Source of the DNA: a virus | DNA: 64,000 nt | Strand: one strand, 5' to 3' | Virus record (IMG/VR): IMGVR_UViG_3300034782_000041 | Coordinates: 10,407 to 74,406 of that record | The notes under the pieces: model-generated | What the model saw: only the letters and a program-made list of their open reading frames with translations | What the model was told of the DNA's origin: nothing | Database searches by the model: none | Part shown: in pieces, positions 4,009-59,162 of the stretch | Layout of the letters: each line of letters begins with the position of its first letter | Position numbering within the stretch: position 1 is the stretch's first letter | Position numbers and translations under genes: made by a program

Positions 4009-5076
4009 CTAGTCGTCCTCGGGTGGCACAGCTTTGAGTTGTGAGCGCTTCTGAGGCGTCGCTGGCAGCTCCTGAGACTCTTCCAGTTCTTCTCCTAGCT
4101 CCTCGTAGGGCGGTTCGTACGTGTAGTCTGGCGGTGCTACTCCAGGCATTCCAGCAGCGACGAGCCCTGCACGGACCCTGTTGGACGCGACCTCGCCGTT
4201 GAGATCTGGCATAAACCCATCTGGTATACCCAGCCCGGATTGATCATCGCCGTCGTTGTTGGTTACGGGCCGATTACCACCGTTTCTACTACGAGCGAAG
4301 CCGGTGATTTCCATGACCTCTCTGGACATACGGATAGGAGTACTAGCGGTGTCCGGTGTCTGTTTCTCTTCATCAGACGGGAAATTGAGCCGTGCAGCGC
4401 CACGTTCTGTGCCGGCACTACGTACGGCATTGTCGTACGCGATGGCTGCTGCTTCGGGATCGTCGAAAACACCGAGCTGCCGCGTTGCACCATCGCGCGT
4501 AATACAAGCACGCCAGCGTTTGCCGTAGGGATGTACGCCAAAATAACCTGAGGCAGTGGCGTACGGGCCCTTTGTTGGAGGTGCTTTGTCCTCCGCGTGG
4601 CTGGCAGTGTCTTCGCTAGAATCGGGAAAGTTGAGTCGATGACGCCGTCCAACCTCACCAGCACGGACAACAGCATCGTACGCGATGGCGGCCTCTTCGG
4701 GATCGTCGAAGACACCAATGCGCTGTACTGCGCCGTCACGTACGATGCGAGCCATCCAGCGCTTGCCGTAGTTGTAGACGCCAAAGTAGCCCGAGATGGT
4801 GTCATATGGCCCCTTGCGAAACCCTGTTTCAGTTGTCTCGGCTGCCTCTGTATGCTCCCCTACAGGTTCCGTCTCGTTCGTAACTACCTCGTCGCCGGCT
4901 TTGTCGGCGTCACTGATTTTGCCGGCCTTCAGCCGCGTGAGAATCGCAGCGACCTCACCAGAAGGTGTTCGGAAGTTCAATTTCGCCCGTTCTTGTAGGT
5001 AGCTGAAGAGATCGTCCCCAATACTCACGTGCCTAGTCATGCCGGAATCCGTATCACGCCTGTTTTGGCTACACAA
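4009..5076 (-). CDS. DNA-binding protein with two tandem AP2/ERF-type (AP2-integrase-like) domains
   Basis: Two internal repeats GYFGVYNYGKRWMARIVRDGAVQRIGVFDDPEEAAIAYDAV and GYFGVHPYGKRWRACITRDGATRQLGVFDDPEAAAIAYDNAV match the AP2 consensus (YRGV..GKW.A.I.....LG.F...EEAA.AYD). Confidence 0.6.
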   Translation of the reverse strand: MCSQNRRDTDSGMTRHVSIGDDLFSYLQERAKLNFRTPSGEVAAILTRLKAGKISDADKAGDEVVTNETEPVGEHTEAAETTETGFRKGPYDTISGYFGVYNYGKRWMARIVRDGAVQRIGVFDDPEEAAIAYDAVVRAGEVGRRHRLNFPDSSEDTASHAEDKAPPTKGPYATASGYFGVHPYGKRWRACITRDGATRQLGVFDDPEAAAIAYDNAVRSAGTERGAARLNFPSDEEKQTPDTASTPIRMSREVMEITGFARSRNGGNRPVTNNDGDDQSGLGIPDGFMPDLNGEVASNRVRAGLVAAGMPGVAPPDYTYEPPYEELGEELEESQELPATPQKRSQLKAVPPEDD

Positions 5077-5620: not shown

Positions 5621-6152
5621 ATGCCCATCATCGTCGAGATTCGAGCAGCTGAAGGCGGCCAAGACGCGCGCCTGGCAGCCCGAAGCGGTTATCGACGAGC
5701 GCCCAGGGATGGTGATCGCCCGCGTGCGGGGCGTCCAGGCCGCACAGCGGTTCCAGGATGAGCCCGGTGGCCATAGGTGGCAGCGCAAGCCCCCCATCGA
5801 GAAGCGGGGCCGCACGCATACCAGGACGGTGACGGTAGCGGTCTTGCCCGAGCCCACCGAGGTCGAGCTGCGCCTGGACTCCAAGGAGATCGAGTGGACC
5901 GCGACCCGGGGAAGCGGAGCAGGTGGTCAGCACCGGAACGTGACCGCGAGCGCCGTCCAGGTTCGGCATCGACTCTCCGGCCTCATGGTGAGGGTCGAGA
6001 GCGAGCACAGCCAGCACATGAATCGTCAGGCCGCGCTACAACTGCTCAGGGCGCGGTTGTGGGAACAGGCCCGCCAGGCAGCAGGAAAGGCCAGAGCGGC
6101 TGACAGGTCTCGATTGGGTAGCCATCGAGCTAGCATTCCGGGGACAGATTGA
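5616..6152 (+). pseudogene. class-I peptide chain release factor (RF1/RF-H-like) remnant lacking domain 1; frameshifted, PxT replaced by PPI
   Basis: Frame beginning ATG 5621 encodes MPIIVEIRAAEGGQDARLAA (matches RF1 domain-2 start ..LEIRAGTGGDEAALFA); homology then continues in the +1 frame (PEAVIDERPGMVIARVRG..GGHRWQRKPPIEKRGRTHTRTVTVAVLPE..RGSGAGGQHRNVTASAVQVRH..ESEHSQHMNRQAALQLLRARLWEQ) with a GGQ motif; about 16 aa missing at the frame junction and the last ~30 aa of RF1 absent. Confidence 0.55.
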
Positions 6153-6997: not shown

Positions 6998-7264
6998 ATG
7001 AAACGTGCGCTGACCGCTGTGGTTCTCTGCGTGGCCTTCGCAGGCTGTCCCCTCTGGAATGTCGCTACAGAGAAGAAGGATGGCTGTGAGCCAACTGCGA
7101 CTCGCTGCAATGGCAACGTCGCGGAGATTTGCGGTAGCGACAAGCGGTGGGACACGAACATGGACTGCTCGGAAGTGACTGGGCCCGATGATCAGAAGTC
7201 GTTCGTCTGTTGTAAAACGCCAGACGGCCACACATGTCTACCGAGCTGCGAAGGAGAACAGTGA
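6998..7264 (+). CDS. small secreted cysteine-rich (lipo)protein
   Basis: N-terminal signal peptide MKRALTAVVLCVAFAGC (lipobox-like AFAGC); 10 Cys in 88 aa. Confidence 0.45.
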   Translation: MKRALTAVVLCVAFAGCPLWNVATEKKDGCEPTATRCNGNVAEICGSDKRWDTNMDCSEVTGPDDQKSFVCCKTPDGHTCLPSCEGEQ

Positions 7265-19822: not shown

Positions 19823-19975
19823 CTGCCTCTCCTTCGTCCCCTCGGGGACCGTCAGGAGTATGACGCTACGCGGGCGGGAATATTCGATTCGCAGACGCGA
19901 TTTTTCTTACACGACAATCAACAACGATTCTGCACGGTTAGGACTCTATTGCGTTGGGTTAGCCGCGGAAGGTAC

Positions 19976-20059
19976 AGGAGTCGAACCTGATCCCGTCAGG
20001 GACGCACCGGTTAGCAGCCGGGCTTCGCGCCACCACGAATTTACCTTCCAGGGCGAAAG
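19976..20059 (-). tRNA. tRNA-Ser(GCU), type II
   Basis: Hand fold of reverse complement: acceptor GGAAGGT/ACCTTCC, anticodon loop CUGCUAA, long variable arm, T-loop TTCGACT. Confidence 0.6.
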
Positions 20060-20069
20060 CGGAAGCGGA

Positions 20070-20152
20070 GGGAATCGAACCCCCAAGGCATATGCTCGCT
20101 CGGGTTCAAGCCGAGTGCCGTCACCTGTCGGCTAGCGCTTCCAAAAGTGGTT
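20070..20152 (-). tRNA. tRNA-Ser(UGA), type II
   Basis: Acceptor GGAAGCG/CGCTTCC, anticodon stem CTCGG/CCGAG loop CUUGAAC, long variable arm, T-loop TTCGATT. Confidence 0.6.
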
Positions 20153-20286
20153 CGGAGAACGATGCGCTCGGTTTGTTTAGCGTGTTGCCATTACACCACC
20201 GGTAACCCGGGTTGGAGTCGAACCAACATCTCTCGCTCCTCAAGCGAAGTAACCGAATGCTTTACTACCGAACCGGCGGAGAACGA

Positions 20287-20372
20287 GTGAGTCGAACACT
20301 ATGCGCAGCTGCGCACGCACCGGTTTCCAACCGGGCTCAGGTCCACACCTGATTCATTCTCCAACTGCATGC
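20287..20372 (-). tRNA. tRNA-Ser(GGA), type II
   Basis: Acceptor GGAGAAT/GTTCTCC (G-U at 7-66), anticodon loop UUGGAAA, variable-arm hairpin GCGCAG/CTGCGC. Confidence 0.5.
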
Positions 20373-20405
20373 GGAAGGCAGAGGTCTCGATCCCCAAGCT
20401 TGCGC

Positions 20406-20954
20406 TCACGCTGCTTTCGAGGCAGGCCCAGGCCCCGCCTGGTTTACCTTCCATGTCCATGCACGCCACGCCTCGGGCATGCCGGGCGTCCACGTCACTG
20501 TGATGTGTACGTCAGGCAGCTTCTTTGGCTTCACCGGCTTCGATCGTAGTCGCATGCCGGCTTGTTGTGGCGTTCGTCCACCCTTCTGTTGGTTGCACGC
20601 TACGCAACAGATGACTACGTTCTCCCAGGTCGTTTGCCCGCCGAGCGTTCGCGGCACAACGTGATCATAGGTAGCCTCCAGACGTGGCACTTGATCTCCA
20701 CAGTACTGGCACCTTCCGTGATCGCGTGTGTAGACGTTCTCGCGTGAGAACTTCACGACACGCTTCTTTCGTCGCATCCGCGTGATGAATCGAACGACGG
20801 ATGGCATCTTGATCGAGAACGTCACCGACCGGATGTTTCTGTCGGTGTATTCATCCACGACCTCTACCTTGCCAAGGAAGAGCAAAGTGATTGCACGTTG
20901 CCAGTGGATCCGCGCCACGGGCAAGTAGGACTGATCGAGAACCAACGTGTCCAT
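20406..20954 (-). CDS. HNH homing endonuclease
   Basis: CQYCGDQVP..DHVVPRTLGGQTTWENVVICCVACNQQKG (HNH with CxxC/CxxC zinc site); inserted inside the tRNA array. Confidence 0.75.
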   Translation of the reverse strand: MDTLVLDQSYLPVARIHWQRAITLLFLGKVEVVDEYTDRNIRSVTFSIKMPSVVRFITRMRRKKRVVKFSRENVYTRDHGRCQYCGDQVPRLEATYDHVVPRTLGGQTTWENVVICCVACNQQKGGRTPQQAGMRLRSKPVKPKKLPDVHITVTWTPGMPEAWRAWTWKVNQAGPGPASKAA

Positions 20955-20981
20955 GACTCGCTCCTTTCTGGTTGCTGTCCG

Positions 20982-21061
20982 TGCTCAGAGAGGGACTCGA
21001 ACCCTCACGCCGAAGCATCCGCTTTTGAGACGGACGTGTATGCCTATTCCACCATCTGAGC
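20982..21061 (-). tRNA. tRNA-Leu(CAA), type II
   Basis: Acceptor GCTCAGA/TCTGAGC, anticodon stem TCCGT/GCGGA loop CUCAAAA, 11-nt variable arm, T-arm GAGGG-TTCGAGT-CCCTC. Confidence 0.6.
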
Positions 21062-21067
21062 TTATCG

Positions 21068-21146
21068 TGCCCGAGGAGAGATTTGAACTCTCACGCCGAA
21101 GCAGCTGGGTTTAGGCCAGCCGTGTATGCCCTTCCACCACTCGGGC
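21068..21146 (-). tRNA. tRNA-Leu(UAA), type II
   Basis: Acceptor GCCCGAG/CTCGGGC, anticodon stem GCTGG/CCAGC loop CCUAAAC, T-loop TTCAAAT. Confidence 0.6.
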
Positions 21147-21150
21147 GTCG

Positions 21151-21224
21151 TACCACCGGAGAGACTCGAACTCTCAACACCTCGGTCCTTAGCCGAGACC
21201 CTCTTCCAATTGGGGCACGGTGGC
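21151..21224 (-). tRNA. type-I (short variable arm) tRNA with anticodon AAG (leucine CUU family), A73
   Basis: Acceptor GCCACCG/CGGTGGT (G1-U72), D-arm CCCC-AATTGGAAGA-GGG, anticodon stem CTCGG/CCGAG loop CUAAGGA, 5-nt variable region. Confidence 0.45.
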
Positions 21225-21226
21225 AG

Positions 21227-21297
21227 CTCCGGCTCAGGGACTCGAACCCCGATACCACGATCCAGAGTCGTGGGTCCTACCGTTAGACGAAGCCGGA
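21227..21297 (-). tRNA. tRNA-Gln(CUG)
   Basis: Acceptor TCCGGCT/AGCCGGA, anticodon stem CACGA/TCGTG loop CUCUGGA. Confidence 0.55.
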
Positions 21298-21301
21298 ATG
21301 G

Positions 21302-21372
21302 TTCGGGGTCTGGGACTCGAACCCAGATTGCTCGGGTCAAAGCCGAGTATCTTGCCATTGGATCAACCCCGA
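21302..21372 (-). tRNA. tRNA-Gln(UUG)
   Basis: Acceptor TCGGGGT/ACCCCGA, anticodon stem CTCGG/CCGAG loop CUUUGAC. Confidence 0.55.
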
Positions 21373-21376
21373 GTAG

Positions 21377-21450
21377 AGCGGACGATGGGACTCGAACCCA
21401 TACGACGAGGTTGGAAGCCTCGCATGCTGGCCGTTGAACATCACGCCCGC
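21377..21450 (-). tRNA. tRNA-Gly(UCC)
   Basis: Acceptor GCGGGCG/CGTCCGC, anticodon stem CGAGG/CCTCG loop CUUCCAA. Confidence 0.55.
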
Positions 21451-21454
21451 TTTG

Positions 21455-21525
21455 TGCCCCCGGAAGGACTCGAACCCTCGTAGCCTGATTAAAGGTCAGG
21501 TATGACACCACTTCATCACGGAGGC
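21455..21525 (-). tRNA. tRNA-Lys(UUU)
   Basis: Acceptor GCCTCCG/CGGGGGC, anticodon stem CCTGA/TCAGG loop CCUUUAA. Confidence 0.55.
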
Positions 21526-21528
21526 GAG

Positions 21529-21602
21529 TACCTGTGGTCAGACTCGAACTGACACTGTACGCGTTCTGAGCGCGCTCCCTCTTCCAATTGGGGTACACAG
21601 GC
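21529..21602 (-). tRNA. type-I (short variable arm) tRNA with anticodon CAG (leucine CUG family), A73
   Basis: Acceptor GCCTGTG/CACAGGT, same D-arm as the AAG tRNA (CCCC-AATTGGAAGA-GGG), anticodon stem GCGCG/CGCGT loop CUCAGAA. Confidence 0.45.
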
Positions 21603-21727
21603 AAAAGATGCAGCCCATCGCCCGATGGAGACCTTCTCTCCAATCCCTTAGAGCCCGTGAATCGATCCACTAGGGACGGTCACTACAACCGCCCTGCCGA
21701 AACTTCGACTAGCTGTGGCCGCATCAG

Positions 21728-21800
21728 TACCGGTCCTGAGAATCGAACTCAGCGCGTCCTGCTTGTAAGGCAGGTCCCACCCCCAGGTGAGCTGACCGGC
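21728..21800 (-). tRNA. tRNA-Val(UAC)
   Basis: Acceptor GCCGGTC/GACCGGT, anticodon stem CCTGC/GCAGG loop CUUACAA, T-arm CTGAG-TTCGATT-CTCAG. Confidence 0.5.
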
Positions 21801-21804
21801 GTGG

Positions 21805-21875
21805 TCGCAGCGGAGGGAATCGGACCCTCACGGTCTCGCTTATGAGACGAGCCGCCTAACCCGTAGGTCGCTGCG
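21805..21875 (-). tRNA. tRNA-Met(CAU), elongator-type, T-loop UCCGAUU
   Basis: Acceptor CGCAGCG/CGCTGCG, anticodon stem CTCGT/GCGAG loop CUCAUAA; could alternatively be Ile2 (lysidine) tRNA. Confidence 0.5.
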
Positions 21876-21878
21876 TGG

Positions 21879-21950
21879 TAGCGGGGGCTGGAATTGCACC
21901 AGCGTGGTCAGGCTTATGAGACCTGACAGGTAACTAGCAACCTCCCCGCA
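21879..21950 (-). tRNA. second CAU-anticodon tRNA (Met/fMet/Ile2) with non-canonical T-loop UGCAAUU and 1-72 mismatch
   Basis: Acceptor TGCGGGG/CCCCGCT (U1.U72), anticodon stem CAGGT/GCCTG loop CUCAUAA, T-arm GCTGG-TGCAATT-CCAGC. Confidence 0.4.
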
Positions 21951-21954
21951 AAAG

Positions 21955-22022
21955 CGCCTCCATCAGGAATCGAACCCGAGTAGCTGCTTTAGAAGAGCAG
22001 CGCCTCATCCATGAGTAGAGGC
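21955..22022 (-). tRNA. tRNA-Arg(UCU)
   Basis: Acceptor GCCTCTA/TGGAGGC, anticodon stem CTGCT/AGCAG loop CUUCUAA; compact D-arm. Confidence 0.5.
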
Positions 22023-22025
22023 AAG

Positions 22026-22093
22026 TACCACTGGACGGAGTCGAACCATCTCTTCAGGTTTAGGAGACCCGAATCTGTTCCACCAGCAGTGGC
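22026..22093 (-). tRNA. tRNA-Arg(CCU)
   Basis: Acceptor GCCACTG/CAGTGGT, anticodon stem CGGGT/ACCTG loop CUCCUAA. Confidence 0.5.
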
Positions 22094-22097
22094 ATCG

Positions 22098-22166
22098 TGC
22101 CTCTACGAGGAATCGAACCTCGTCTTCCGAGTTCGTAGCCCGGAGTCCGGCTCCACCGGCAGAGGC
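22098..22166 (-). tRNA. tRNA-Arg(ACG)
   Basis: Acceptor GCCTCTG/TAGAGGC, anticodon stem CCGGG/CTCGG loop CUACGAA. Confidence 0.5.
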
Positions 22167-22173
22167 GAATCAG

Positions 22174-22245
22174 AGCCCAAGGACAGAATCGAACTGTCAT
22201 CTCTCGCGTACCGGGCGAGTGCTCTCTCCATTGAGCTACGAGGGC
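22174..22245 (-). tRNA. tRNA-Thr(GGU) (two acceptor-stem mismatches, C33)
   Basis: D-arm GCTC-AATGGA-GAGC, anticodon stem CTCGC/GCGAG loop CCGGUAC, T-arm GACAG-TTCGATT-CTGTC; acceptor GCCCTCG/CTTGGGC has mismatches at 5-68 and 6-67. Confidence 0.4.
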
Positions 22246-22249
22246 GTCG

Positions 22250-22321
22250 TGGACCGCCGGGGAATCGAACCCCGATCTTCTGGGTGCAAACCAGATGTGT
22301 TCCCGTTATCACTAGCAGCCC
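22250..22321 (-). tRNA. tRNA-Ala(UGC) with G3-U70
   Basis: Acceptor GGGCTGC/GCGGTCC, D-arm GTG-ATAACGGGAA-CAC, anticodon stem TCTGG/CCAGA loop UUUGCAC, A73. Confidence 0.55.
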
Positions 22322-22325
22322 TTAG

Positions 22326-22345
22326 GCGGGCCTTCCACCCGCTCG
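22326..22345. repeat. intergenic hairpin repeat copy 1 (GCGGGCCTTCCACCCGCTCG)
   Basis: 20-nt motif with GCGGG/CCCGC stem, identical copy at 22662-22681; both sit in tRNA spacers. Confidence 0.55.
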
Positions 22346-22418
22346 TGGACACCGTCGGGATCGAACCGACCACATCCGGCTTGCAAGGCCAGATCGCCCC
22401 CTTGGTACATGGGTGCCC
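22346..22418 (-). tRNA. second tRNA-Ala(UGC)-like copy with G3-U70 (weak D-stem)
   Basis: Acceptor GGGCACC/GGTGTCC, anticodon stem CTGGC/GCCGG loop CUUGCAA, T-loop TTCGATC. Confidence 0.4.
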
Positions 22419-22585
22419 ATAACGACGAGGAACTAACCCCGCCGACACGTTTTTGTCTCCTCCTCGAACAGAGGCGTCCCTCCTCAGAGGCCAATACTGG
22501 AAGCTCCCAGCAAGTCCGCAGCTAGCTAAGCCCGACTACGCTGTCTGTTCGCCCAGCAGCAAGGCAGGTACGTGCTCCTGCATTG

Positions 22586-22657
22586 TGGACCAACTGGGAA
22601 TCGAACCCAGATCTCTGCCGTGCGAAAGCAGCGTGTTCCCTTTATCACTATTGGCCC
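22586..22657 (-). tRNA. tRNA-Ala(CGC) with G3-U70
   Basis: Acceptor GGGCCAA/TTGGTCC, D-arm GTG-ATAAAGGGAA-CAC, anticodon stem CTGCT/GGCAG loop UUCGCAC. Confidence 0.55.
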
Positions 22658-22661
22658 TTGT

Positions 22662-22681
22662 GCGGGCCTTCCACCCGCTCG
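22662..22681. repeat. intergenic hairpin repeat copy 2 (GCGGGCCTTCCACCCGCTCG)
   Basis: Identical to 22326-22345. Confidence 0.55.
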
Positions 22682-22704
22682 GAGACGCGTCCGTCTCTTG
22701 GCCG

Positions 22705-22777
22705 TGCCACTCCTCGGTAACGCTCCGAGCCCTCCGGCTTTTCAGGCCGGCGCTTCCACTTGGTTAGCTTGGGTGGC
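22705..22777 (-). tRNA. tRNA-Phe(GAA) with non-canonical T-loop AGCGUUA
   Basis: Acceptor GCCACCC/GAGTGGC (one mismatch), D-stem GCT/AGC, anticodon stem CCGGC/GCCGG loop CUGAAAA, T-arm CTCGG-AGCGTTA-CCGAG. Confidence 0.45.
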
Positions 22778-22788
22778 AAACGGATTTG

Positions 22789-22859
22789 TAGCCCAGCTAG
22801 GAGTTGAACCTAGATCACTCGCTTATAAGGCAAGCGCCCTGCCGTTGTGCTACTGGGCC
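22789..22859 (-). tRNA. tRNA-Ile(UAU)
   Basis: Acceptor GGCCCAG/CTGGGCT (G1-U72), anticodon stem CTTGC/GCGAG loop CUUAUAA, T-arm CTAGG-TTCAACT-CCTAG. Confidence 0.4.
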
Positions 22860-22931
22860 AACAAATGCGGGCCTCGCACCCGCTCGGAGGTGACGGTTTA
22901 GGGCTTCGCTTTCGCGCCACACCTCTAGCCG

Positions 22932-23003
22932 CGGAGCTGACGGGAATTGAACCCGCCTCGCCGGTTAGACAGACCGGTAGCCTCACCAGATGCTTACAGC
23001 TCC
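22932..23003 (-). tRNA. tRNA-Asp(GUC)
   Basis: Perfect acceptor GGAGCTG/CAGCTCC, anticodon stem CCGGT/ACCGG loop CUGUCUA, T-loop TTCAATT, G73. Confidence 0.6.
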
Positions 23004-23045
23004 AAACGCGAGCGTGCTCCCTTGTTACACCACGGCGCGGCGACC

Positions 23046-23069
23046 GCAACCGACAGGAATCGAACCTGC
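23046..23069 (-). other. orphan tRNA 3-prime half (acceptor strand + T-arm) without room for a 5-prime half
   Basis: ACAGG-AATCGAA-CCTGC T-arm signature preceded by 7-nt acceptor-like strand; only 28 nt before the next tRNA. Confidence 0.3.
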
Positions 23070-23097
23070 ACTTCCCGCTCTAACTATGACTTCTTGG

Positions 23098-23169
23098 GGT
23101 GAGCGAGAAGAATCGAACTTCCATCACGCGGGCCACAACCGCGCGCTCTGCCATTGAGCTACGCCCACC
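23098..23169 (-). tRNA. tRNA-His(GUG) with G-1 and C73
   Basis: G(-1)+GTGGGCG/CGCTCAC acceptor, D-arm GCTC-AATGGC-AGAGC, anticodon stem CGCGG/CCGCG loop UUGUGGC. Confidence 0.65.
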
Positions 23170-23174
23170 ATCAG

Positions 23175-23245
23175 TTCCCCCGGACAGAGTTGCGCTGTCA
23201 TCTCTCGCTTATCAAGCGAGTGCTCTCCTGTTGAGCTACAGGGGA
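23175..23245 (-). tRNA. tRNA-Ile(GAU) with non-canonical T-loop CGCAACU
   Basis: Acceptor TCCCCTG/CGGGGGA, D-arm GCTC-AACAGG-AGAGC, anticodon stem CTCGC/GCGAG loop UUGAUAA, T-arm GACAG-CGCAACT-CTGTC. Confidence 0.5.
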
Positions 23246-23249
23246 TCAG

Positions 23250-23321
23250 TCGGAGTGGCTGGGATCGAACCAGCGATCTCATGGTCCCGAACCATGCGCG
23301 ATACCGCTTCGCTACACCCCG
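23250..23321 (-). tRNA. tRNA-Pro(CGG)
   Basis: Acceptor CGGGGTG/CACTCCG, D-stem GCGA/TCGC, anticodon stem CATGG/CCATG loop UUCGGGA. Confidence 0.55.
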
Positions 23322-23322
23322 G

Positions 23323-23395
23323 TCGGAGCGACAGGACTCGAACCTGCATGCTCTTGGTCCCAAACCAAGCGGGTTGCCAAATACCCTACGCTCCG
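23323..23395 (-). tRNA. tRNA-Pro(UGG)
   Basis: Perfect acceptor CGGAGCG/CGCTCCG, D-stem GGGT/ACCC, anticodon stem CTTGG/CCAAG loop UUUGGGA. Confidence 0.6.
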
Positions 23396-23399
23396 GTTG

Positions 23400-23471
23400 T
23401 GACCCCGCCGAGAATCGAACTCGGATTGCTGGCTTGAAAGACCAGCTGCTTGACCGTTAGCAGACGAGGCC
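23400..23471 (-). tRNA. tRNA-Glu(UUC)
   Basis: Acceptor GGCCTCG/CGGGGTC (two G-U), D-stem TGCT/AGCA, anticodon stem CTGGT/GCCAG loop CUUUCAA. Confidence 0.5.
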
Positions 23472-23515
23472 AGAGGACGTGTTTTCCCTCGTCACTGGGA
23501 ATGCTTGCTTTGCGG

Positions 23516-23586
23516 AGGCTTCGGTGGGAGTCGAACCCACGATACAGGTTTTGCAGACCCGTGCCTTGCCACTTGACTACGAAGCC
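23516..23586 (-). tRNA. tRNA-Cys(GCA)
   Basis: Perfect acceptor GGCTTCG/CGAAGCC, anticodon stem CGGGT/ACCTG loop CUGCAAA, T-arm GTGGG-TTCGACT-CCCAC. Confidence 0.55.
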
Positions 23587-23588
23587 AG

Positions 23589-24098
23589 TCAGGTCAGGGG
23601 CATCCCTCTGTACTCCGCTACGGCACGAAGGAACGCCTCCCCCCTATCTCCAGTGTGCTCCTGTCGATGGCAATTGGAACACAGGAGTTCGCATTTCAGA
23701 ACTTCCTTCTTGACTACAGCCCACGCTCGGTTGCTGTTCTCGCTGATCTGAAAGTCCTTCTTACCGTTGTGGTGGAACTCAAAGGCTGCTGGACTCCCTG
23801 AGAAACCACAGCGTTGACACTTTCCGCCAAGGAGGGTTATAGCCGCAACCTTCACCCGATATCGCCTAATCCTAGATCGACAGGTGTAGCATACATCCCC
23901 TTTCCCGGGGACTAGCTTCCCTGAGCACAACCTACACCTAGTCGGCTTACGTCTTATATCGTGGATGTGGATCTTCTTCCGATTGTTAGCCCCAAATGGG
24001 GAGCAGGAAACGCAGTACCTACGACTCGACAGGTTCCGCACCTTCCCGTCTATGACTATTCGAGTAGGAAACTCTTCGTGGCACTTGGCGCATTCCAT
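23589..24098 (-). CDS. HNH endonuclease (second copy inside tRNA array)
   Basis: CQRCGF..FEFHHNGKKD..LLCSNCHRQEH (HNH with Cys4 zinc site); stop codon 2 nt from the tRNA-Cys 5-prime end. Confidence 0.6.
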   Translation of the reverse strand: MECAKCHEEFPTRIVIDGKVRNLSSRRYCVSCSPFGANNRKKIHIHDIRRKPTRCRLCSGKLVPGKGDVCYTCRSRIRRYRVKVAAITLLGGKCQRCGFSGSPAAFEFHHNGKKDFQISENSNRAWAVVKKEVLKCELLCSNCHRQEHTGDRGEAFLRAVAEYRGMPLT

Positions 24099-24156
24099 AG
24101 CTCTAAGGTACCTGAGAGTACGATCCTGCGTTAGTCAACGAGGGCCTTTCCTTTGA

Positions 24157-24230
24157 CTACCAGTAGCTCCCTCGATCCGACTTGAACGGATAACCCCCTG
24201 GTTAACGGCCAGGTGCTGCTACCAATTGAG
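24157..24230 (-). tRNA. tRNA-Asn(GUU)
   Basis: Perfect acceptor TCCCTCG/CGAGGGA, anticodon stem CCTGG/CCAGG loop CCGUUAA (C33), T-loop TTCAAGT. Confidence 0.5.
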
Positions 24231-24234
24231 CTAC

Positions 24235-24306
24235 GAGGGATCAGAGCTGGTGGAGGGAATCGAACCCCCAACCTACTGCTTACAAGGCAGTTGCACTTCC
24301 CTTGTG
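24235..24306 (-). tRNA. tRNA-Thr(UGU)
   Basis: Perfect acceptor GCTGGTG/CACCAGC, D-stem GCAC/GTGC, anticodon stem ACTGC/GCAGT loop CUUGUAA. Confidence 0.6.
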
Positions 24307-24313
24307 CTACACC

Positions 24314-24399
24314 AGCGAGCTAGTGGGGAACGGTGGAATCGAACCACATGCCCAAATGGGAAACGGTTTACAGCCGCTCGCCGGACCATCCAGCCTTAT
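24314..24399 (-). tRNA. tRNA-Tyr(GUA), type II
   Basis: Acceptor GGGGAGC/GTTCCCC, anticodon stem AGCGG/CCGTT loop CUGUAAA, variable-arm hairpin CCCA-TT-TGGG, T-loop TTCGATT; D-region irregular. Confidence 0.45.
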
Positions 24400-24403
24400 G
24401 ACG

Positions 24404-24474
24404 CTCCCCGCGGTGCCTCTGGAAGGAATTGCACCCTCATCAACGGGGTAAGAACCCGGTATTCTCCTGTTGAA
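24404..24474 (-). tRNA. tRNA-Lys(CUU) with non-canonical T-loop UGCAAUU
   Basis: Perfect acceptor GCCTCTG/CAGAGGC, D-stem GTTC/GAAT, anticodon loop UUCUUAC, T-arm GAGGG-TGCAATT-CCTTC. Confidence 0.4.
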
Positions 24475-24487
24475 CTACAGAGGCAAG

Positions 24488-24575
24488 ATGATCCTCCGAT
24501 GAGAAGGATCATGTACTGTCTTCGTCATCGTCAGCTATTCGATTACCAGAGGCTCGATTCACAAGCTATCGAGCC
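24488..24575. other. two strong 8-bp hairpins in a tRNA-free spacer of the array
   Basis: ATGATCCT-ccgatgaga-AGGATCAT (24488-24512) and GGCTCGAT-tcacaagct-ATCGAGCC (24551-24575). Confidence 0.45.
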
Positions 24576-24598
24576 AACATTCCAGAGAACGTTCGCGG

Positions 24599-24670
24599 AG
24601 CGGGCGACGGGAATCGAACCCGCCAGGGCCTGCCTGGCAGACAGGTGTCACGCCTTGTGACTTCACCCGC
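24599..24670 (-). tRNA. tRNA-Gly(GCC)
   Basis: Acceptor GCGGGTG/CGCCCGC, D-stem GTCA/TGAC, anticodon stem CCTGT/GCAGG loop CUGCCAG. Confidence 0.55.
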
Positions 24671-24686
24671 GTATTTCTTTCAGTGG

Positions 24687-24757
24687 AGCCGACGGACAGA
24701 GTCGAACTGTCATCCCCGCTTTACGAAAGCGGTGCACTACCGTTGTGCTACGAAGGC
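24687..24757 (-). tRNA. tRNA-Thr(CGU) (two acceptor-stem mismatches)
   Basis: D-stem GCAC/GTGC, anticodon stem CCGCT/AGCGG loop UUCGUAA, T-arm GACAG-TTCGACT-CTGTC; acceptor GCCTTCG/CGTCGGC mismatched at 4-69 and 5-68. Confidence 0.4.
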
Positions 24758-24771
24758 AGGTCTATGAATGG

Positions 24772-24838
24772 CGGGCCGCCGAGGAATCGAACCCCGCTGG
24801 CCGGATTTGGAGCCCAGCCTGATCCCAGATCGCAACCC
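24772..24838 (-). tRNA. tRNA-Trp(CCA)
   Basis: Acceptor GGGTTGC/GCGGCCC (two G-U), anticodon stem CTGGG/TCCGG loop CUCCAAA, G73; compact D-arm. Confidence 0.45.
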
Positions 24839-25060
24839 AGAAACCAAGAAAGCCAGGGAGACCTTTGTCTGCCCTGGCTTCCTAGTGTGGTCATGTTCTC
24901 TAGTTAGCCAGGGCGTGTCCTCCAGAGATTGGCCTGAATATCGTACGAGGACACGACGCTAAACGCACATGTACCCAGGCCCAACCCTTTGGGCTTTGGT
25001 TCGTGGTGCGTTTGGGTCGCGGCTAACATCACTCTCAGAATACAGGTACTCTACAAACTG

Positions 25061-25543
25061 TCAACCGTTTTCTCGCTCGATCGCAGGCACACCATAGGTC
25101 GCGAGGTTCTTGTTCTTGTAGCCGGCGACGGACGTGATTTCAAGCGCACTCTCAGCCCACCAAGGCAGATCGAATTCAAGCGCGCTGGCCTCGTCGGCAA
25201 ACTCGACTTCCAGAACGAAGAGGCCGGCTAGCTCACCAAGATATTCGTCCACCTCAAGCGTGTGCGTGTCGGTCTTGATGATTCGACGAAGCTTACGTAC
25301 GCGACGTCCCTCGGTCTGACGCCAAAGTAGATCAAACACCCAACGAGGTACCGTCGTGATCCATTCACGGCGCGCGAGGTTTCCGTCGTCCTTGACGGTG
25401 AGCACAGAGTGTACGCCGCCCTCTTCGCGAATGCGTAGCTCGCCAGGTGCAACGAACACGTAGCCCTGCACGATGGTGATAGGCGTCAGCGCCTGGACCT
25501 CAATCGGCAGGTGGGGGAGTAGAAATTTCCGCTCGATCTCCAT
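25061..25543 (-). CDS. CYTH-domain protein (triphosphate tunnel metalloenzyme / class IV adenylyl cyclase-like)
   Basis: N-terminal EIERKFLL signature of CYTH, followed by alternating acidic/basic beta-strand pattern (ELRIREEG..REWITTV..LEVDEY..LEVEF). Confidence 0.55.
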   Translation of the reverse strand: MEIERKFLLPHLPIEVQALTPITIVQGYVFVAPGELRIREEGGVHSVLTVKDDGNLARREWITTVPRWVFDLLWRQTEGRRVRKLRRIIKTDTHTLEVDEYLGELAGLFVLEVEFADEASALEFDLPWWAESALEITSVAGYKNKNLATYGVPAIERENG

Positions 25544-57462: not shown

Positions 57463-57473
57463 CGATCCTCCGG

Positions 57474-57546
57474 TACACCCGGAGGGAATCGAACCCCCAC
57501 CTTGCAGCTCCACAGACTGCACGCTCGGCCTTCGAGCTACGGGTGT
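57474..57546 (-). tRNA. isolated tRNA with anticodon GUG (His-like) but no G-1
   Basis: Perfect acceptor ACACCCG/CGGGTGT, D-arm GCTC-GAAGGCC-GAGC, anticodon stem GCAGT/GCTGC loop CUGUGGA, T-arm GGGGG-TTCGATT-CCCTC, A73. Confidence 0.45.
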
Positions 57547-58629: not shown

Positions 58630-58664
58630 GGCCTGACTATACTGGCCAGGCCTGACGTATTCTG

Positions 58665-59162
58665 TCAGGTCGCCGAAACCTCCTTGCAGATGTTGCACAA
58701 CTCCTCGTCGAACATAGGAGTTTCCCACACGTACGGCTTGCGGCGCCCGTTCTGCGTGACCTCCTCGTAGCGTCGTCGTTGTACGGCTTCCTCGTCGAGG
58801 AACTTGCGGAGAAATGCTGCTTGGTCGTCGAGCGTGTCGATGACCGAGCTGGCGAAGAGATACTCGGTCCACTTGCGTTCCTGGCCGGGCCCGAGCCGCT
58901 TCTGGTATGTGAGAAAGTCAGCGTCCTCGAACCGGTTGCGTGCGCGCATGGCCTCGACATGTTGCTGCGCTACGGATCGCCAGCCGCCGTGGTACTTCTG
59001 ATAGCTCTGGCAGTGGAGCTTTCCCCGCATGTGCGAAATCATCATGCAGAGGACTGTTGCTTTGCGTCCGCTGGCCTGTTTGACCGCAGCTTTCAGGCGG
59101 TCTCGCACTGCACGTCGTTGGGCCCATACATCTTCGGTAATCTCTGCTGTTGCTTGCATCAT
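58665..59162 (-). CDS. hypothetical protein
   Basis: 165-aa ORF with balanced composition. Confidence 0.4.
   Translation of the reverse strand: MMQATAEITEDVWAQRRAVRDRLKAAVKQASGRKATVLCMMISHMRGKLHCQSYQKYHGGWRSVAQQHVEAMRARNRFEDADFLTYQKRLGPGQERKWTEYLFASSVIDTLDDQAAFLRKFLDEEAVQRRRYEEVTQNGRRKPYVWETPMFDEELCNICKEVSAT

Follow-up and report, generated by a model that had tools for sequence, protein, structure and literature searches.

What does a phage gain by carrying tRNA genes for every amino acid, and are the oddly built members of such a set functional or in decay? These questions are raised by a cluster of tRNA genes within a 64-kb stretch of viral DNA (the window), whose source is probably a large, uncultivated bacteriophage. 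The window spans a region of replication genes in a phage without a close cultured relative, and encodes SNF2 and other helicases, PolA (with a 77% relative in IMG/VR), a primase-like ORF, a methyltransferase and HNH genes with PHROG matches. Among the genes of the window, none was recognised as a viral hallmark structural gene; judged by gene content, the setting is phage-like. Here, we confirm that a 4.9-kb minus-strand array contains 38-39 packed tRNA genes that jointly represent 20 amino acids (Table 1), as a first-pass annotation of a compact, near-complete complement had claimed.

Default ARAGORN called 32 tRNAs at 19965-24845, every one on the minus strand, and the -ps90 setting raised the count in the array to 40, again without a plus-strand call and with each call lying between other genes. 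Seven of the extra calls are credible (two Met, Arg-ACG, Phe, Ile-GAU, Tyr and a doubtful Ser-CGA), bringing the array to 38 tRNAs plus the doubtful one, where hand folding had recovered at least 36. An eighth, Val-CAC (23044-23137), was rejected because it overlaps tRNA-His and reuses the T arm of a tRNA fragment. At -ps90 the remaining 59 kb of the window yielded one spurious call, and 20 dinucleotide shuffles of the array yielded none by default and one in total at -ps90; by both controls, the expected number of false ARAGORN calls in an array-sized region is ~0.05-0.1. Of the array tRNAs, 27 score at or above the RF00005 gathering threshold of 29 bits, and Ile-GAU, Phe and Arg-ACG, which default ARAGORN missed, score 59.9, 36.0 and 29.0 bits on Rfam. 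The long-arm (Sec) clan model recovers Ser-GCU (38.1 bits), Ser-GGA (36.7) and Ser-UGA (46.4), the last already among the 27. Rfam gives Arg-UCU, Arg-CCU, Tyr and Trp 23-28 bits and the second Ala-UGC 15.4, and no Rfam tRNA model matches five candidates (Val, Asn, both CAU tRNAs and Ser-CGA). Unconstrained minimum free energy folding turns all eight weak candidates into cloverleaves with four arms and places the anticodon in a loop of 7 nt. Representation of all 20 amino acids requires accepting the relaxed calls, since the 35 firm calls alone lack Met and Tyr. The first-pass list of isotypes agrees with ours except on two points: there are three atypical short Leu tRNAs (GAG, AAG and CAG) rather than two, and Ser-CGA is a possible fourth Ser.

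Table 1. Features of the tRNA array and its surroundings, listed from the highest array coordinate downwards, with two features outside the array first.
Feature	Coordinates	Strand	Support and details
Solitary second tRNA-His(GUG)	57472..57546	-	ARAGORN default; Rfam 49.6 bits
Sigma-70-like promoter candidate, TTGACA-16-TATTCT	25037..25064	-	~200 nt upstream of first tRNA
tRNA-Trp(CCA)	24769..24838	-	ARAGORN default, shifted 7 nt, ends hand-corrected; Rfam clan 26.7 bits at 24772-24839; MFE cloverleaf; acceptor GGGUUGC/GCGGCCC, G73, very small D-loop
tRNA-Thr(CGU)	24684..24757	-	ARAGORN; Rfam 56.0 bits
tRNA-Gly(GCC)	24597..24670	-	ARAGORN; Rfam 36.4 bits
tRNA-Lys(CUU)	24412..24484	-	ARAGORN; Rfam 59.5 bits; T-loop UGCAAUU (G55)
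tRNA-Tyr(GUA), class II	24324..24409	-	ARAGORN -ps90 only; Rfam clan 27.6 bits; cloverleaf z = -2.2; acceptor GGGGAGC/GUUCCCC, A73, odd 6-bp D stem
tRNA-Thr(UGU)	24244..24316	-	ARAGORN; Rfam 70.2 bits
tRNA-Asn(GUU)	24166..24240	-	ARAGORN default; 20/20 Watson-Crick pairs; no Rfam match; anticodon loop CCGUUAA
HNH endonuclease gene, 169 aa, within array	23589..24098	-	phrog_2255 HNH endonuclease, E = 4.6e-32
tRNA-Cys(GCA)	23514..23586	-	ARAGORN; Rfam 61.8 bits
tRNA-Glu(UUC)	23399..23471	-	ARAGORN; Rfam 55.2 bits
tRNA-Pro(UGG)	23321..23395	-	ARAGORN; Rfam 61.2 bits; C1-G72, G37
tRNA-Pro(CGG)	23249..23321	-	ARAGORN; Rfam 64.3 bits
tRNA-Ile(GAU)	23174..23245	-	ARAGORN -ps90; Rfam 59.9 bits; T-loop CGCAACU
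tRNA-His(GUG)	23095..23169	-	ARAGORN; Rfam 60.9 bits
tRNA gene remnants	23004..23094	-	Read from sequence; repeat family D5; 3' half (T arm GCAGGUUCGAUUCCUGU and acceptor strand), then 5' half (acceptor and D arm) truncated by Asp gene
tRNA-Asp(GUC)	22931..23003	-	ARAGORN; Rfam 48.3 bits; G73, unusual U37
Conserved hairpin GAGCGGGUGCGAGGCCCGC	22867..22885	-	7 nt upstream of Ile(UAU)
tRNA-Ile(UAU)	22788..22859	-	ARAGORN; Rfam 58.1 bits
tRNA-Phe(GAA)	22704..22777	-	ARAGORN -ps90; Rfam 36.0 bits; fold; non-canonical T-loop AGCGUUA
Conserved hairpin GAGCGGGUGGAAGGCCCGC	22662..22680	-	4 nt upstream of Ala(CGC); inside 107-nt duplicated unit D8
tRNA-Ala(CGC)	22585..22657	-	ARAGORN; Rfam 56.7 bits
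tRNA-Ala(UGC), divergent	22345..22418	-	ARAGORN default; Rfam 15.4 bits; fold; weak D arm
Conserved hairpin GAGCGGGUGGAAGGCCCGC	22326..22344	-	4 nt upstream of Ala(UGC) 22249..22321
tRNA-Ala(UGC)	22249..22321	-	ARAGORN; Rfam 55.5 bits
tRNA-Thr(GGU)	22173..22245	-	ARAGORN; Rfam 55.4 bits; anticodon loop CCGGUAC
tRNA-Arg(ACG), 70 nt	22097..22166	-	ARAGORN -ps90; Rfam 29.0 bits; small D-loop
tRNA-Arg(CCU), 69 nt	22025..22093	-	ARAGORN default; Rfam 23-26 bits; small D-loop
tRNA-Arg(UCU), 70 nt	21956..22025	-	ARAGORN default; Rfam 27.7 bits
tRNA(CAU), initiator-like	21876..21950	-	ARAGORN -ps90; cloverleaf z = -3.3; no RF00005 match; U1xU72 mismatch, A73, two G-C pairs at anticodon-stem foot
tRNA(CAU), elongator Met or Ile2	21802..21875	-	ARAGORN -ps90; cloverleaf z = -3.1; C1-G72
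tRNA-Val(UAC)	21727..21800	-	ARAGORN default; cloverleaf fold; no Rfam match
Structured spacer, 124 nt	21603..21726	-	Fold -50.4 kcal/mol, z = -2.8
tRNA-Leu(CAG), short, 75 nt	21528..21602	-	ARAGORN; Rfam 51.0 bits; family covariation
tRNA-Lys(UUU)	21454..21525	-	ARAGORN; Rfam 56.8 bits; anticodon loop CCUUUAA
tRNA-Gly(UCC)	21376..21450	-	ARAGORN; Rfam 34.0 bits
tRNA-Gln(UUG)	21299..21372	-	ARAGORN; Rfam 58.0 bits
tRNA-Gln(CUG)	21226..21297	-	ARAGORN; Rfam 52.7 bits; G73
tRNA-Leu(AAG), short, 75 nt	21150..21224	-	ARAGORN; Rfam 47.0 bits; family covariation
tRNA-Leu(UAA), class II	21067..21146	-	ARAGORN; Rfam 49.1 bits; anticodon loop CCUAAAC
tRNA-Leu(CAA), class II	20981..21061	-	ARAGORN; Rfam 56.3 bits
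HNH endonuclease gene, 182 aa, within array	20406..20954	-	Pfam HNH_5, 60 bits; phrog_16726, E = 4.8e-37
Doubtful tRNA-Ser(CGA)	20371..20452	-	ARAGORN -ps90 only; cloverleaf z = -1.1; no Rfam match; Ser(GCU)-like acceptor stem, degenerate T-loop AUCGAGA, overlaps final 15 codons of HNH ORF
tRNA-Ser(GGA), class II	20275..20362	-	ARAGORN; Rfam clan 36.7 bits
Short tRNA, Leu anticodon GAG, 74 nt, identity uncertain	20201..20274	-	ARAGORN; Rfam 36.6 bits; repeat family D10
tRNA-Ser(UGA), class II	20059..20142	-	ARAGORN; Rfam 39.1 bits; Sec model 46.4 bits
tRNA-Ser(GCU), class II	19965..20049	-	ARAGORN; Rfam clan 38.1 bits

The genes lie at a density of ~8 per kb and, in line with the short spacers first described, 26 of the 38 junctions measure at most 13 nt (0-13 nt); the run of tRNA genes is broken by two HNH endonuclease genes, tRNA fragments and a 124-nt structured spacer. 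No two array tRNAs are more than 79% identical (the paralogues Ile(GAU) and Thr(GGU) reach 76%), and we therefore regard the array as an old one that has been maintained, without recent amplification. Phage tRNA gene clusters are already known, and a 2019 survey found 15-37 tRNAs in each, with all 20 isotypes in 8 of 228 (PMC6409571), which bears out the earlier remark that such completeness is seen in few phages. Compared with these clusters, the present array is at the top of the range and unusually complete, and it includes several oddly built tRNAs.

Set against the codon usage of the phage, the anticodon set can read every sense codon except CGG. Extended wobble at U34 or I34 is needed for decoding of GCC, GUC, CCC and CUA. 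The array has no G34 tRNA for GUC and GCC, two of the codons that the phage uses most, and nothing that reads CGG, so that host tRNAs are still required. At the same time, the set includes tRNAs for codons that the phage itself seldom uses (UUA, 2% of Leu; AUA, 8% of Ile; AGA/AGG, 4-5% of Arg), and thus a full replacement set fits better than a top-up of a few codons. The identity elements that synthetases would need for charging are kept: G3.U70 and A73 in all three Ala tRNAs, U73 in Gly and Cys, G-1 and C73 in His, U1-A72 in Gln and Asn, C1-G72 and G37 in Pro, A73 in all Leu tRNAs, the bacterial-type long variable arm in Tyr, and G18, G19 and A20 in the Arg-UCU D-loop (UGGA). The first-pass statement that CCA is not encoded holds for 33 of 39 tRNAs, but six genes encode it (Gln-UUG, both Met, His, Thr-CGU and Trp). 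The translational autonomy proposed for this phage would extend to the tRNA pool but not beyond it; searches of the 64-kb window turned up no aminoacyl-tRNA synthetase, CCA-adding enzyme or tRNA repair enzyme.

Several tRNAs depart from the canonical form. Three with Leu anticodons (GAG, AAG and CAG) lack the long variable arm. Leu(CAG) and Leu(AAG) share a Leu-type D arm, G1.U72 and A73, and belong to a covarying short-Leu family found again in unrelated viral contigs. In a comparison of 11 sequences taken from 7 contigs, pairing holds in 94% of cells and compensatory change is seen at 18 of 20 pairs, a result matched by none of 500 shuffles; A73 is invariant and the six different anticodons are all Leu. 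This covariation marks the short Leu tRNAs as a genuine family. E. coli LeuRS requires A73 and D-loop/elbow elements, while the variable arm and anticodon are dispensable (PMC9976931). The short tRNA with GAG has four G.U pairs in its acceptor stem, and its anticodon arm is nearly identical to that of Ile(GAU). U33 is near-universal in tRNAs, yet C33 occurs in four array tRNAs (Asn(GUU), Thr(GGU), Lys(UUU) and Leu(UAA)) and in 7 of 62 tRNAs of other viral arrays.

Several array tRNAs have non-canonical T-loops with G55 or C55, and these, like the five candidates that match no Rfam tRNA model, could be decaying copies. The tRNA fragments within the array show that gene death happens there. Anticodon-loop changes in phage tRNAs have been predicted to block anticodon nucleases (PMC10264068), and the atypical tRNAs point to a role against host defence, a reading that the first-pass annotation did not raise.

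We propose, with moderate confidence, that the array is a co-oriented tRNA operon giving the phage its own decoding set, in which the atypical tRNAs are nuclease-escape variants and the HNH genes are homing elements. The array would probably be expressed as a polycistronic transcript, to be cut into individual tRNAs by RNase P and 3' trimming. For 33 of these the CCA end would be added by the host CCA-adding enzyme, and charging would be left to host synthetases. The mature tRNAs would then provide a nearly complete decoding set, making phage translation little dependent on the host tRNA pool, whatever its condition. The pool may be mismatched to the many A/U-ending codons of the phage, run down during infection, or cut by tRNA-targeting defence nucleases, and thus the array may either guard against host tRNA loss or compensate for codon usage. 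Under this proposal, the arm-less Leu tRNAs, C33 and U37 anticodon loops, shrunken D-loops and altered T-loops would be functional variants selected to escape defence nucleases, not products of decay. The HNH endonuclease genes would be selfish elements and would also favour rearrangements of the array.

Other elements accompany the tRNAs. Promoter-like sites are no more frequent than chance (one found against 1.6 expected), leaving the sigma-70-like site as a candidate only. The 124-nt spacer is predicted to fold into a closed multi-branch structure in which a 9-bp stem encloses four hairpins; UUUU comes directly after. The spacer has no Rfam match and no counterpart in the other loci compared, and could represent either a stable small RNA or a heavily altered tRNA. 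A T5orf172/MUG113 endonuclease-like ORF (57571-58872, Pfam) is the immediate upstream neighbour of the solitary tRNA-His, which by alignment is not a recent copy of the array tRNA-His. Ile(UAU), Ala(CGC) and Ala(UGC) are each closely preceded by a 19-nt hairpin of the GNRA type, which recurs in ~100 unrelated viral contigs with compensatory stem changes. With Ile(UAU), AUA is decoded without lysidine.

The first-pass annotation described a near-complete tRNA complement on the minus strand of the window, and ARAGORN, the Rfam models and RNA folding confirm such an array, with near-zero false positives in our controls. With default settings, ARAGORN identifies 32 tRNA genes at 19965-24845, all on the minus strand, and additionally a tRNA-His outside the array. 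Setting the threshold to 90% (-ps90) gives 40 array calls, again on the minus strand only, with the gained genes (Ser-CGA, two CAU tRNAs, Arg-ACG, Phe-GAA, Ile-GAU, Tyr-GUA and Val-CAC) filling gaps between the others. We rejected the Val-CAC call at 23044-23137 as an artefact, as it overlaps the His gene and borrows the T arm of a tRNA fragment, and plus-strand calls obtained at -ps80 were discarded as noise. At the relaxed threshold, the other 59 kb of the window yield one spurious call, and 20 dinucleotide shuffles of the array yield none at default settings and one in total at the relaxed threshold.

The Rfam tRNA model recovers 27 array genes at its gathering score, and three genes missed by default ARAGORN reach that score: Ile-GAU (59.9 bits), Phe (36.0) and Arg-ACG (29.0). 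The long-arm Sec model of the same clan detects Ser-GCU (38.1 bits), Ser-GGA (36.7) and Ser-UGA (46.4), the last already within the 27. Scores are lower for Arg-UCU, Arg-CCU, Tyr and Trp (23-28 bits) and for one Ala-UGC copy (15.4 bits); Val, Asn, both CAU tRNAs and Ser-CGA have no match to the tRNA model. Eight of the weaker genes were refolded without constraints (Val, the 15.4-bit Ala-UGC copy, Phe, Tyr, Trp, the CAU pair and Ser-CGA), and each formed a cloverleaf of four arms whose 7-nt loop presents the expected anticodon. We count 35 genes as firm, found by default ARAGORN or at or above the Rfam gathering score; the other four, identified by relaxed ARAGORN calls together with a cloverleaf fold, comprise three probable genes (the two CAU tRNAs and Tyr) and one doubtful gene (Ser-CGA). 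Across the array we find the structure expected of functional tRNAs: a 7-bp acceptor stem, a 7-nt anticodon loop, a T arm, and model scores above chance. The isotypes first listed agree overall with ours, apart from the short Leu tRNAs, which number three rather than two; the original array end at 24838 coincides with our corrected start of tRNA-Trp, and the short spacers are borne out, with 26 of 38 junctions at or below 13 nt. The statement that CCA is not encoded holds for most genes but not all: six encode it.

Positions of the array segments, in transcription order, and of other features of the window. L numbers denote contigs from other collections examined for short Leu tRNAs, C33 or the hairpin.
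Feature	Position	Strand	Content or remark
Segment 1		-	Trp, Thr, Gly, Lys, Tyr, Thr, Asn
Segment 2	23589-24098	-	HNH endonuclease gene
Segment 3		-	Cys, Glu, Pro, Pro, Ile, His
Segment 4	23004-23094	-	tRNA fragments
Segment 5		-	Asp, hairpin, Ile-UAU, Phe
Segment 6		-	hairpin, Ala, Ala, hairpin, Ala
Segment 7		-	Thr, three Arg, two CAU tRNAs, Val
Segment 8	21603-21726	-	124-nt structured spacer
Segment 9		-	Leu-CAG, Lys, Gly, Gln, Gln, Leu-AAG, Leu-UAA, Leu-CAA
Segment 10	20406-20954	-	second HNH gene
Segment 11		-	Ser-CGA (doubtful), Ser, Leu-GAG, Ser, Ser
tRNA-Trp	24838-24769	-	boundary corrected by reading; acceptor GGGUUGC/GCGGCCC, G73, encoded CCA
tRNA-Tyr	24409-24324	-	boundary corrected by sequence reading
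First CAU tRNA	21950-21876	-	boundary corrected by sequence reading
Short Leu family members	21150-21224 (Leu-AAG), 21528-21602 (Leu-CAG)	-	D-arm search; also L004, L005, L008, L009, L010, L011
Leu-GAG	20201-20274	-	without long variable arm
C33 tRNAs	21067-21146 (Leu-UAA), 21454-21525 (Lys-UUU), 22173-22245 (Thr-GGU), 24166-24240 (Asn-GUU)	-
tRNA-Asp	22931-23003	-	U37
Ser-CGA	20371-20452	-	doubtful
Hairpin copies	22326-22344, 22662-22680, 22867-22885	-	also loci L019-L094, L215-L303
Solitary tRNA-His	57472-57546	-	outside array
T5orf172/MUG113 ORF	57571-58872	-	433 aa
PolA	43732-46746	+	1004 aa
Major vault protein homologue	30633-33239	-	868 aa
Release-factor-like gene	5621-6152	+	ORF 5709-6152
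HNH/AP2 endonuclease gene	4009-5076	-

Published definitions of tRNA clusters or array units require 15 or more (in one case 20 or more) tRNA genes, packed at no fewer than 2 per kb (PMC6409571; PMC4758250). The array holds 32 default or 38-39 relaxed calls in 4.88 kb, or ~6.6-8 per kb, and represents all 20 isotypes once the relaxed calls are included. The original interpretation is supported, with the caveats discussed below. In a 2019 survey, clusters contained 15-37 genes, and 8 of 228 contained all 20 isotypes (PMC6409571). Our array thus stands at the upper end of that catalogue, its 38-39 genes in a single 4.9-kb cluster slightly exceeding the surveyed range, and its full isotype set is one found in few surveyed clusters. 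The surveyed examples (Morgado & Vicente 2019) include mycobacteriophage cluster C1 (such as Bxz1/Rizal), Caulobacter phiCbK-like phages, Streptomyces phages, Agrobacterium phage Atu_ph07 and halovirus HGTV-1, and the array resembles these large-phage clusters in its dozens of co-oriented tRNAs, density above 2 per kb, short spacers and interspersed ORFs (PMC6409571; PMC10264068). Unlike them, it contains no tmRNA, suppressor or 'Pyl' tRNA, and it lacks DNA similarity to deposited phages: when 50,697 phage records were searched with the array by megablast, the sole match was tRNA-sized (73 nt), and the window's PolA is at most about 30% identical to cultured-phage proteins (all below 31% by tblastn). 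Since that survey, huge phages with more tRNAs in total have been described.

The tRNA regions of T4/T6 and T5 share with the array a tight packing and homing endonuclease genes inside the region, and their tRNAs are processed from a common precursor. The T5 tRNA region contains HNH enzymes, and T4 encodes two extra stable small RNAs, of unknown function, among its tRNAs. The T-even phages carry the homing endonuclease SegB in this region (PMC13096335). The array differs from these systems in size, with 38-39 tRNAs against only 8 in T4 and about two dozen in T5; in its endonucleases, which are of unrelated HNH families; and in that we saw no tRNA ligase or kinase-phosphatase repair gene in the window. 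Overall, the array is one more very complete case of a known phenomenon, in a lineage without cultured relatives, with ~39 tRNAs that serve every amino acid of the 20 and leave just one of the 61 sense codons unread. What makes it valuable is mainly a family of short-arm Leu tRNAs, the C33 anticodon loops and a conserved hairpin.

To relate the array to codon usage, we counted 15,422 codons in 60 ORFs whose base periodicity is that of coding sequence; the phage overall has 58% G+C and about 65% GC3. Only CGG lacks a reader in the array, with GCC, GUC, CCC and CUA read through extended U34 or I34 wobble only. Readers are present for codons that are rare in the phage (UUA, 2% of Leu; AUA, 8% of Ile; AGA and AGG, 4-5% of Arg), and there is no G34 tRNA for GUC or GCC, both frequent in the phage. 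This anticodon pattern would fit either a general replacement set or a supply of U34 tRNAs to a more G+C-rich host. The proposal that the array confers translational autonomy stands for the tRNA pool but does not extend beyond it: apart from the truncated release-factor-like ORF, the window has no synthetase, CCA-adding enzyme or tRNA repair gene.

One explanation is that the array serves codon-usage compensation only, mainly supplying U34 and rare-codon tRNAs that are scarce in a host higher in G+C or differently biased, with the odd features of its tRNAs reflecting neutral drift. This is the classical explanation and has survey support (PMC6409571), and the array does provide a U34 tRNA in each four-fold and split box (UAC, UGC twice, UGG, UGU, UCC, UGA, UAA, UUG, UUU, UUC, UCU and UAU), while having no G34 or C34 tRNA for GUC, GCC, CCC and CGG, which would be abundant in a G+C-rich host. 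Codons ending in A or U also make up 15-40% of most phage codon families. However, the array exceeds such a need, both with tRNAs for the hardly used UUA, AUA, AGA and AGG and with C34 and G34 tRNAs for the common CUG, CAG, AAG, ACG, GCG and CCG, and drift poorly explains a covarying short Leu family and the repeated occurrence of C33 across unrelated arrays. We consider compensation alone possible but doubtful.

The layout of the array records a long history. Its 39 genes carry 37 different anticodons, and pairwise identity among them reaches 79% at most; the most similar pairs are isoacceptors (Ala/Ala, Leu/Leu, Pro/Pro, Arg/Arg and Gln/Gln), and one cross-isotype pair, Thr-GGU and Ile-GAU, is 76% identical. 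These low identities indicate that the array expanded long ago by duplication and anticodon change, and has stayed intact since. Between His and Asp lie two tRNA remnants. The first retains the T arm and acceptor strand of a 3' half; the second, behind it, retains the acceptor and D arm of a 5' half and is truncated by the Asp gene. Both are evidence of gene turnover and death within the array. The tRNA-like Ser-CGA sequence is degenerate, with the acceptor stem of Ser-GCU, and its 5' half is overlapped by the last 15 codons of the second HNH ORF, an arrangement that suggests insertion of the endonuclease gene beside or into a tRNA gene. A promoter scan found one sigma-70-like site upstream of the first tRNA, a number no higher than chance would give. 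Far from the array, a second, diverged tRNA-His lies directly downstream of an ORF with a T5orf172/MUG113 (GIY-YIG-like) domain, another endonuclease-tRNA pairing.

Such features could instead mark a selfish or decaying mobile 'tRNA array unit' that owes its spread to recombination and homing endonucleases, with many pseudogenes and little translational use. The two HNH genes in the array, the T5orf172 endonuclease-like gene beside the solitary tRNA-His, the half-tRNA fragments, and the degenerate, ORF-overlapped Ser-CGA are all in keeping with this idea, as is the roughly one quarter of members that fall below the Rfam threshold. So is the absence of an array from the same locus in the nearest SNF2 relatives; in the window, an SNF2 helicase gene lies directly downstream of the array. 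SNF2 homologues (44-60% identity) occur on six contigs, and ARAGORN found no tRNA on three of these; gene maps of the other three have no gene-free gap beside SNF2. The array was thus gained or lost as a block. Against decay, however, stand the retention in each member of the 7-bp acceptor stem, the 7-nt anticodon loop and isotype identity elements; the minimal redundancy of 37 anticodons in 39 genes, as selection for coverage would give; and members that are old and diverged, yet still intact. We regard a selfish or decaying unit as unlikely.

The 124-nt spacer between Val and Leu-CAG has a closed five-way fold (-50.4 kcal/mol, z = -2.8), with UUUU directly after the folded part and UAG, the missing Leu anticodon, in one of its hairpin loops. 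It has no match in Rfam or elsewhere in our searches. By analogy with the extra small RNAs of T4, of which it is a possible counterpart, the spacer may be a stable small RNA, or it may be a much-altered tRNA.

The identity elements of the array tRNAs are those expected of their isotypes: G3.U70 in Ala, U73 in Gly and Cys, G-1/C73 in His, U1-A72 in Gln and Asn, C1-G72 and G37 in Pro, A73 in Leu, A20 in the D-loop of Arg-UCU, and G73 in Asp, Ser and Trp. Identity agrees with the anticodon throughout, except for Leu-GAG, whose identity is uncertain. The presence of all checkable elements argues for function over decay, as far as sequence can tell, and the tRNAs are bacterial in type, judged by the long-arm Tyr, His G-1, and U1-A72 in Gln and Asn. 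One CAU tRNA (21876-21950) has a U1xU72 mismatch and only two G-C pairs, followed by U31.G39. Bacterial initiator tRNA-fMet, also with a CAU anticodon, is marked by a 1:72 mismatch, canonically C1xA72, and by an anticodon stem that ends in three G-C pairs; this CAU tRNA resembles it in the 1:72 mismatch.

Three tRNAs with Leu anticodons, 74-75 nt long, lack the long variable arm. Leu-AAG and Leu-CAG have in common a Leu-type D arm (CCC-CAAUUGGAAGA-GGG), G1.U72 and A73, and an IMG/VR search with this D arm recovered the same short type from tRNA arrays on six further, unrelated viral contigs. Members of this family are 74-77 nt long and have A73 and, mostly, G1.U72. Among 11 aligned sequences there are six different anticodons, every one for Leu; 94% of cells are paired, 18 of 20 pairs have changed on both sides, and neither any of 500 shuffles nor any slid register approaches this pairing. 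Covariation and the shuffle controls together indicate that this class I-shaped phage tRNA-Leu is a real, selected family, and our literature search found no description of it. Bacterial LeuRS requires A73 and D-loop/elbow elements, not the variable arm or anticodon (PMC9976931), making leucine charging of the short tRNAs plausible. In lacking the long arm while keeping A73 and D-loop/elbow elements, the family resembles animal mitochondrial class I-shaped tRNA-Leu and minimal E. coli variants (PMC9976931). Unlike these, the phage tRNAs are presumably charged by bacterial LeuRS, occur beside long-arm Leu tRNAs in the same array, and mostly carry the G1.U72 wobble. Leu-GAG differs from the other short Leu tRNAs, with four G.U acceptor pairs and an anticodon arm that is almost that of Ile-GAU.

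The array departs from the universal tRNA consensus in other places as well: in addition to the missing variable arm in three tRNAs, four have C33 and one, Asp, has U37. Almost all tRNAs have U33 (PMC2275089); in other viral arrays (L004-L011, among the contigs examined), 7 of 62 tRNAs have a base other than U33. The D-loops of the three Arg tRNAs and Trp are only 3-7 nt long and retain G18 and G19, with the UGGA loop of Arg-UCU retaining A20 too, and the T-loops of several array tRNAs diverge from UUCRAnY. Anticodon-loop changes in phage tRNAs have been predicted to block host anticodon nucleases (PMC10264068), which makes an anti-defense reading attractive as an inference for this array. Its anticodon loops (C33 four times, Asp U37) lie off the cellular consensus like those of the nuclease-resistant phage tRNAs of van den Berg et al. 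(2023), but those cases were defined against known host tRNAs and cleavage sites, whereas resistance of the array is a conjecture. For one eukaryotic toxin, changing U33 to C left cleavage unaffected (PMC2275089).

We tentatively propose, as a reading that may well prove wrong, that the array is a 'nuclease-proof' translation kit rather than a codon top-up, and that the hairpin associated with it is an undescribed, portable phage RNA boundary element. The re-engineered tRNAs may still translate while escaping a host tRNA-cleaving defense, with the class I-shaped Leu tRNAs, C33 and U37 loops, minimal D-loops and altered T-loops as candidates for such evasion; the variable arm that the short Leu tRNAs have lost is a type of site at which tRNA-Tyr is cleaved by Septu-type nucleases. 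The short Leu and C33 tRNAs are synthesizable candidates for probing whether host tRNA-cleaving defenses shape phage tRNAs, and may serve as orthogonal or nuclease-resistant tRNAs.

The hairpin is a 19-nt element, GAGCGGGUG-NN-AGGCCCGC, with three copies in the window against a chance expectation of 0.04; all three lie within the array, each ahead of a tRNA at a distance of 4-7 nt. In IMG/VR, 76 contigs carry the exact pattern in unrelated surroundings, compared with 4 for a control with a permuted 3' arm, and with stem variants included the hairpin is found in about 100 unrelated viral contigs. In the viral matches, a C precedes the motif in 90%, T is enriched in the seven bases after it, and the second base of the variable dinucleotide is a purine in 68 of 70, which makes the element GAGCGGGUG-NR-AGGCCCGC with a GNRA-like loop. 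When two stem pairs were freed, we found GG/CC in 42 cases, AG/CU in 10, CG/CG in 9, and UG/CA and CA/UG in 4 each; these compensatory variants indicate that the hairpin is a base-paired structure. It has no Rfam family, no match in cultured phages, and its sequence is absent from the searchable literature. In bacterial genomes the pattern behaves as chance or coding sequence, and the matches in genome collections, mostly of this kind in G+C-rich bacteria, are therefore uninformative on the host. A CRISPR array of Gilvimarinus sp. (NZ_JAUOQM010000022.1, ~7150-7190; locus L095 of our contig set), with 37 repeats and a 61-nt period, has a spacer containing the motif with its typical flanks, indicating that hairpin-bearing phages infect this gammaproteobacterium.

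The hairpin is not specific to tRNA arrays, as a tRNA is present at only 7 of 76 loci, and no conserved gene family adjoins it. Two further contigs have the hairpin 7 nt before a tRNA, and a metagenome scan for the hairpin ahead of a tRNA start yielded two contigs, both unrelated, without recovering the window itself. Of 98 instances, 37 are followed by a Shine-Dalgarno sequence and a start codon, the latter 13-36 nt downstream. The hairpin thus tends to precede the next functional unit, be it a tRNA or a Shine-Dalgarno sequence and start. We rejected a plain intrinsic terminator, as two of the three window copies have no U-tract and T is enriched downstream to no more than 35-49%. Our best guess is that the hairpin would act as a portable RNA boundary element in processing, 5' protection or attenuation: it may mark or protect the 5' boundary of downstream tRNAs and mRNAs, and may be widespread in phages. 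As such, it is a candidate new regulatory or processing element common to many unrelated phages.

The genomic setting of the array, in a window of 56-65% G+C, is phage-like. The recognizable genes are of phage-type replication and nucleotide metabolism: besides the SNF2 helicase next to the array they include a second SNF2 helicase, a DEAD/Helicase_C_2 helicase, a primase-like ORF, a PD-(D/E)XK nuclease, an AAA_24 protein, thymidylate kinase, a DNA methyltransferase, a NUDIX protein, an RNase T-like exonuclease, at least four homing-endonuclease-like genes, and PolA, a family A DNA polymerase that has a 3'-5' exonuclease domain and, at its N terminus, a domain of the uracil-DNA-glycosylase superfamily. 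In IMG/VR, neither the SNF2 helicase nor a 290-aa flanking ORF retrieved a relative, and a scan with PolA found a sole close relative, a 5.2-kb contig without tRNAs at 77% identity. An exact-match search recovered three short contigs of the same phage, each breaking in the array.

No capsid, portal, terminase or tail gene was recognized among the ~50 ORFs tested in the 64-kb window, and tRNA array units are known from plasmids and chromosomes (PMC4758250, PMC5966550 and PMC12803027); both points favor a reading in which the window belongs to a plasmid or other large mobile element carrying such a unit. The bacterial and plasmid units (Tran et al. 2016; Morgado & Vicente 2018) are similar in having at least 20 genes at 2 or more per kb, extra to the organism's dispersed tRNA genes. 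They are, however, located in Firmicutes, Acidithiobacillus and Mycobacterium, on a chromosome or plasmid, whereas this array sits between phage-type replication genes. Against a non-phage origin, PHROG has families for the replication genes, for the HNH genes and for several ORFs whose function is not recognized; PolA has its only close relative in a viral contig collection; and the window contains small, dense ORFs of unknown function and several homing endonucleases, with no plasmid replication, partition, conjugation or housekeeping genes. As the window is part of a genome, structural genes may lie outside it. A non-phage element is in our judgment very unlikely, and a phage, albeit one whose hallmark virion genes were not recognized within the window, would be the best-supported reading.

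Two further genes of the window deserve mention. One is an ORF of 868 aa whose product is homologous to the major vault protein (MVP) of eukaryotes, with Pfam MVP_shoulder and Vault_3 domains and, over residues 500-816, a match to solved MVP chains at E = 5e-19; viral or phage MVPs have a single report, a 2023 preprint (bioRxiv 10.1101/2023.11.10.566534). Elsewhere, a release-factor-like gene lies beside the HNH/AP2 endonuclease gene. Its ORF encodes an RF-1 (GGQ) domain (76 bits) and the end of a PCRF domain, and the PCRF motif 'EIRAAEGG' lies upstream in another frame, stopped by a UGA at 5759-5761; the split frames indicate that this gene is truncated, frame-shifted or recoded.
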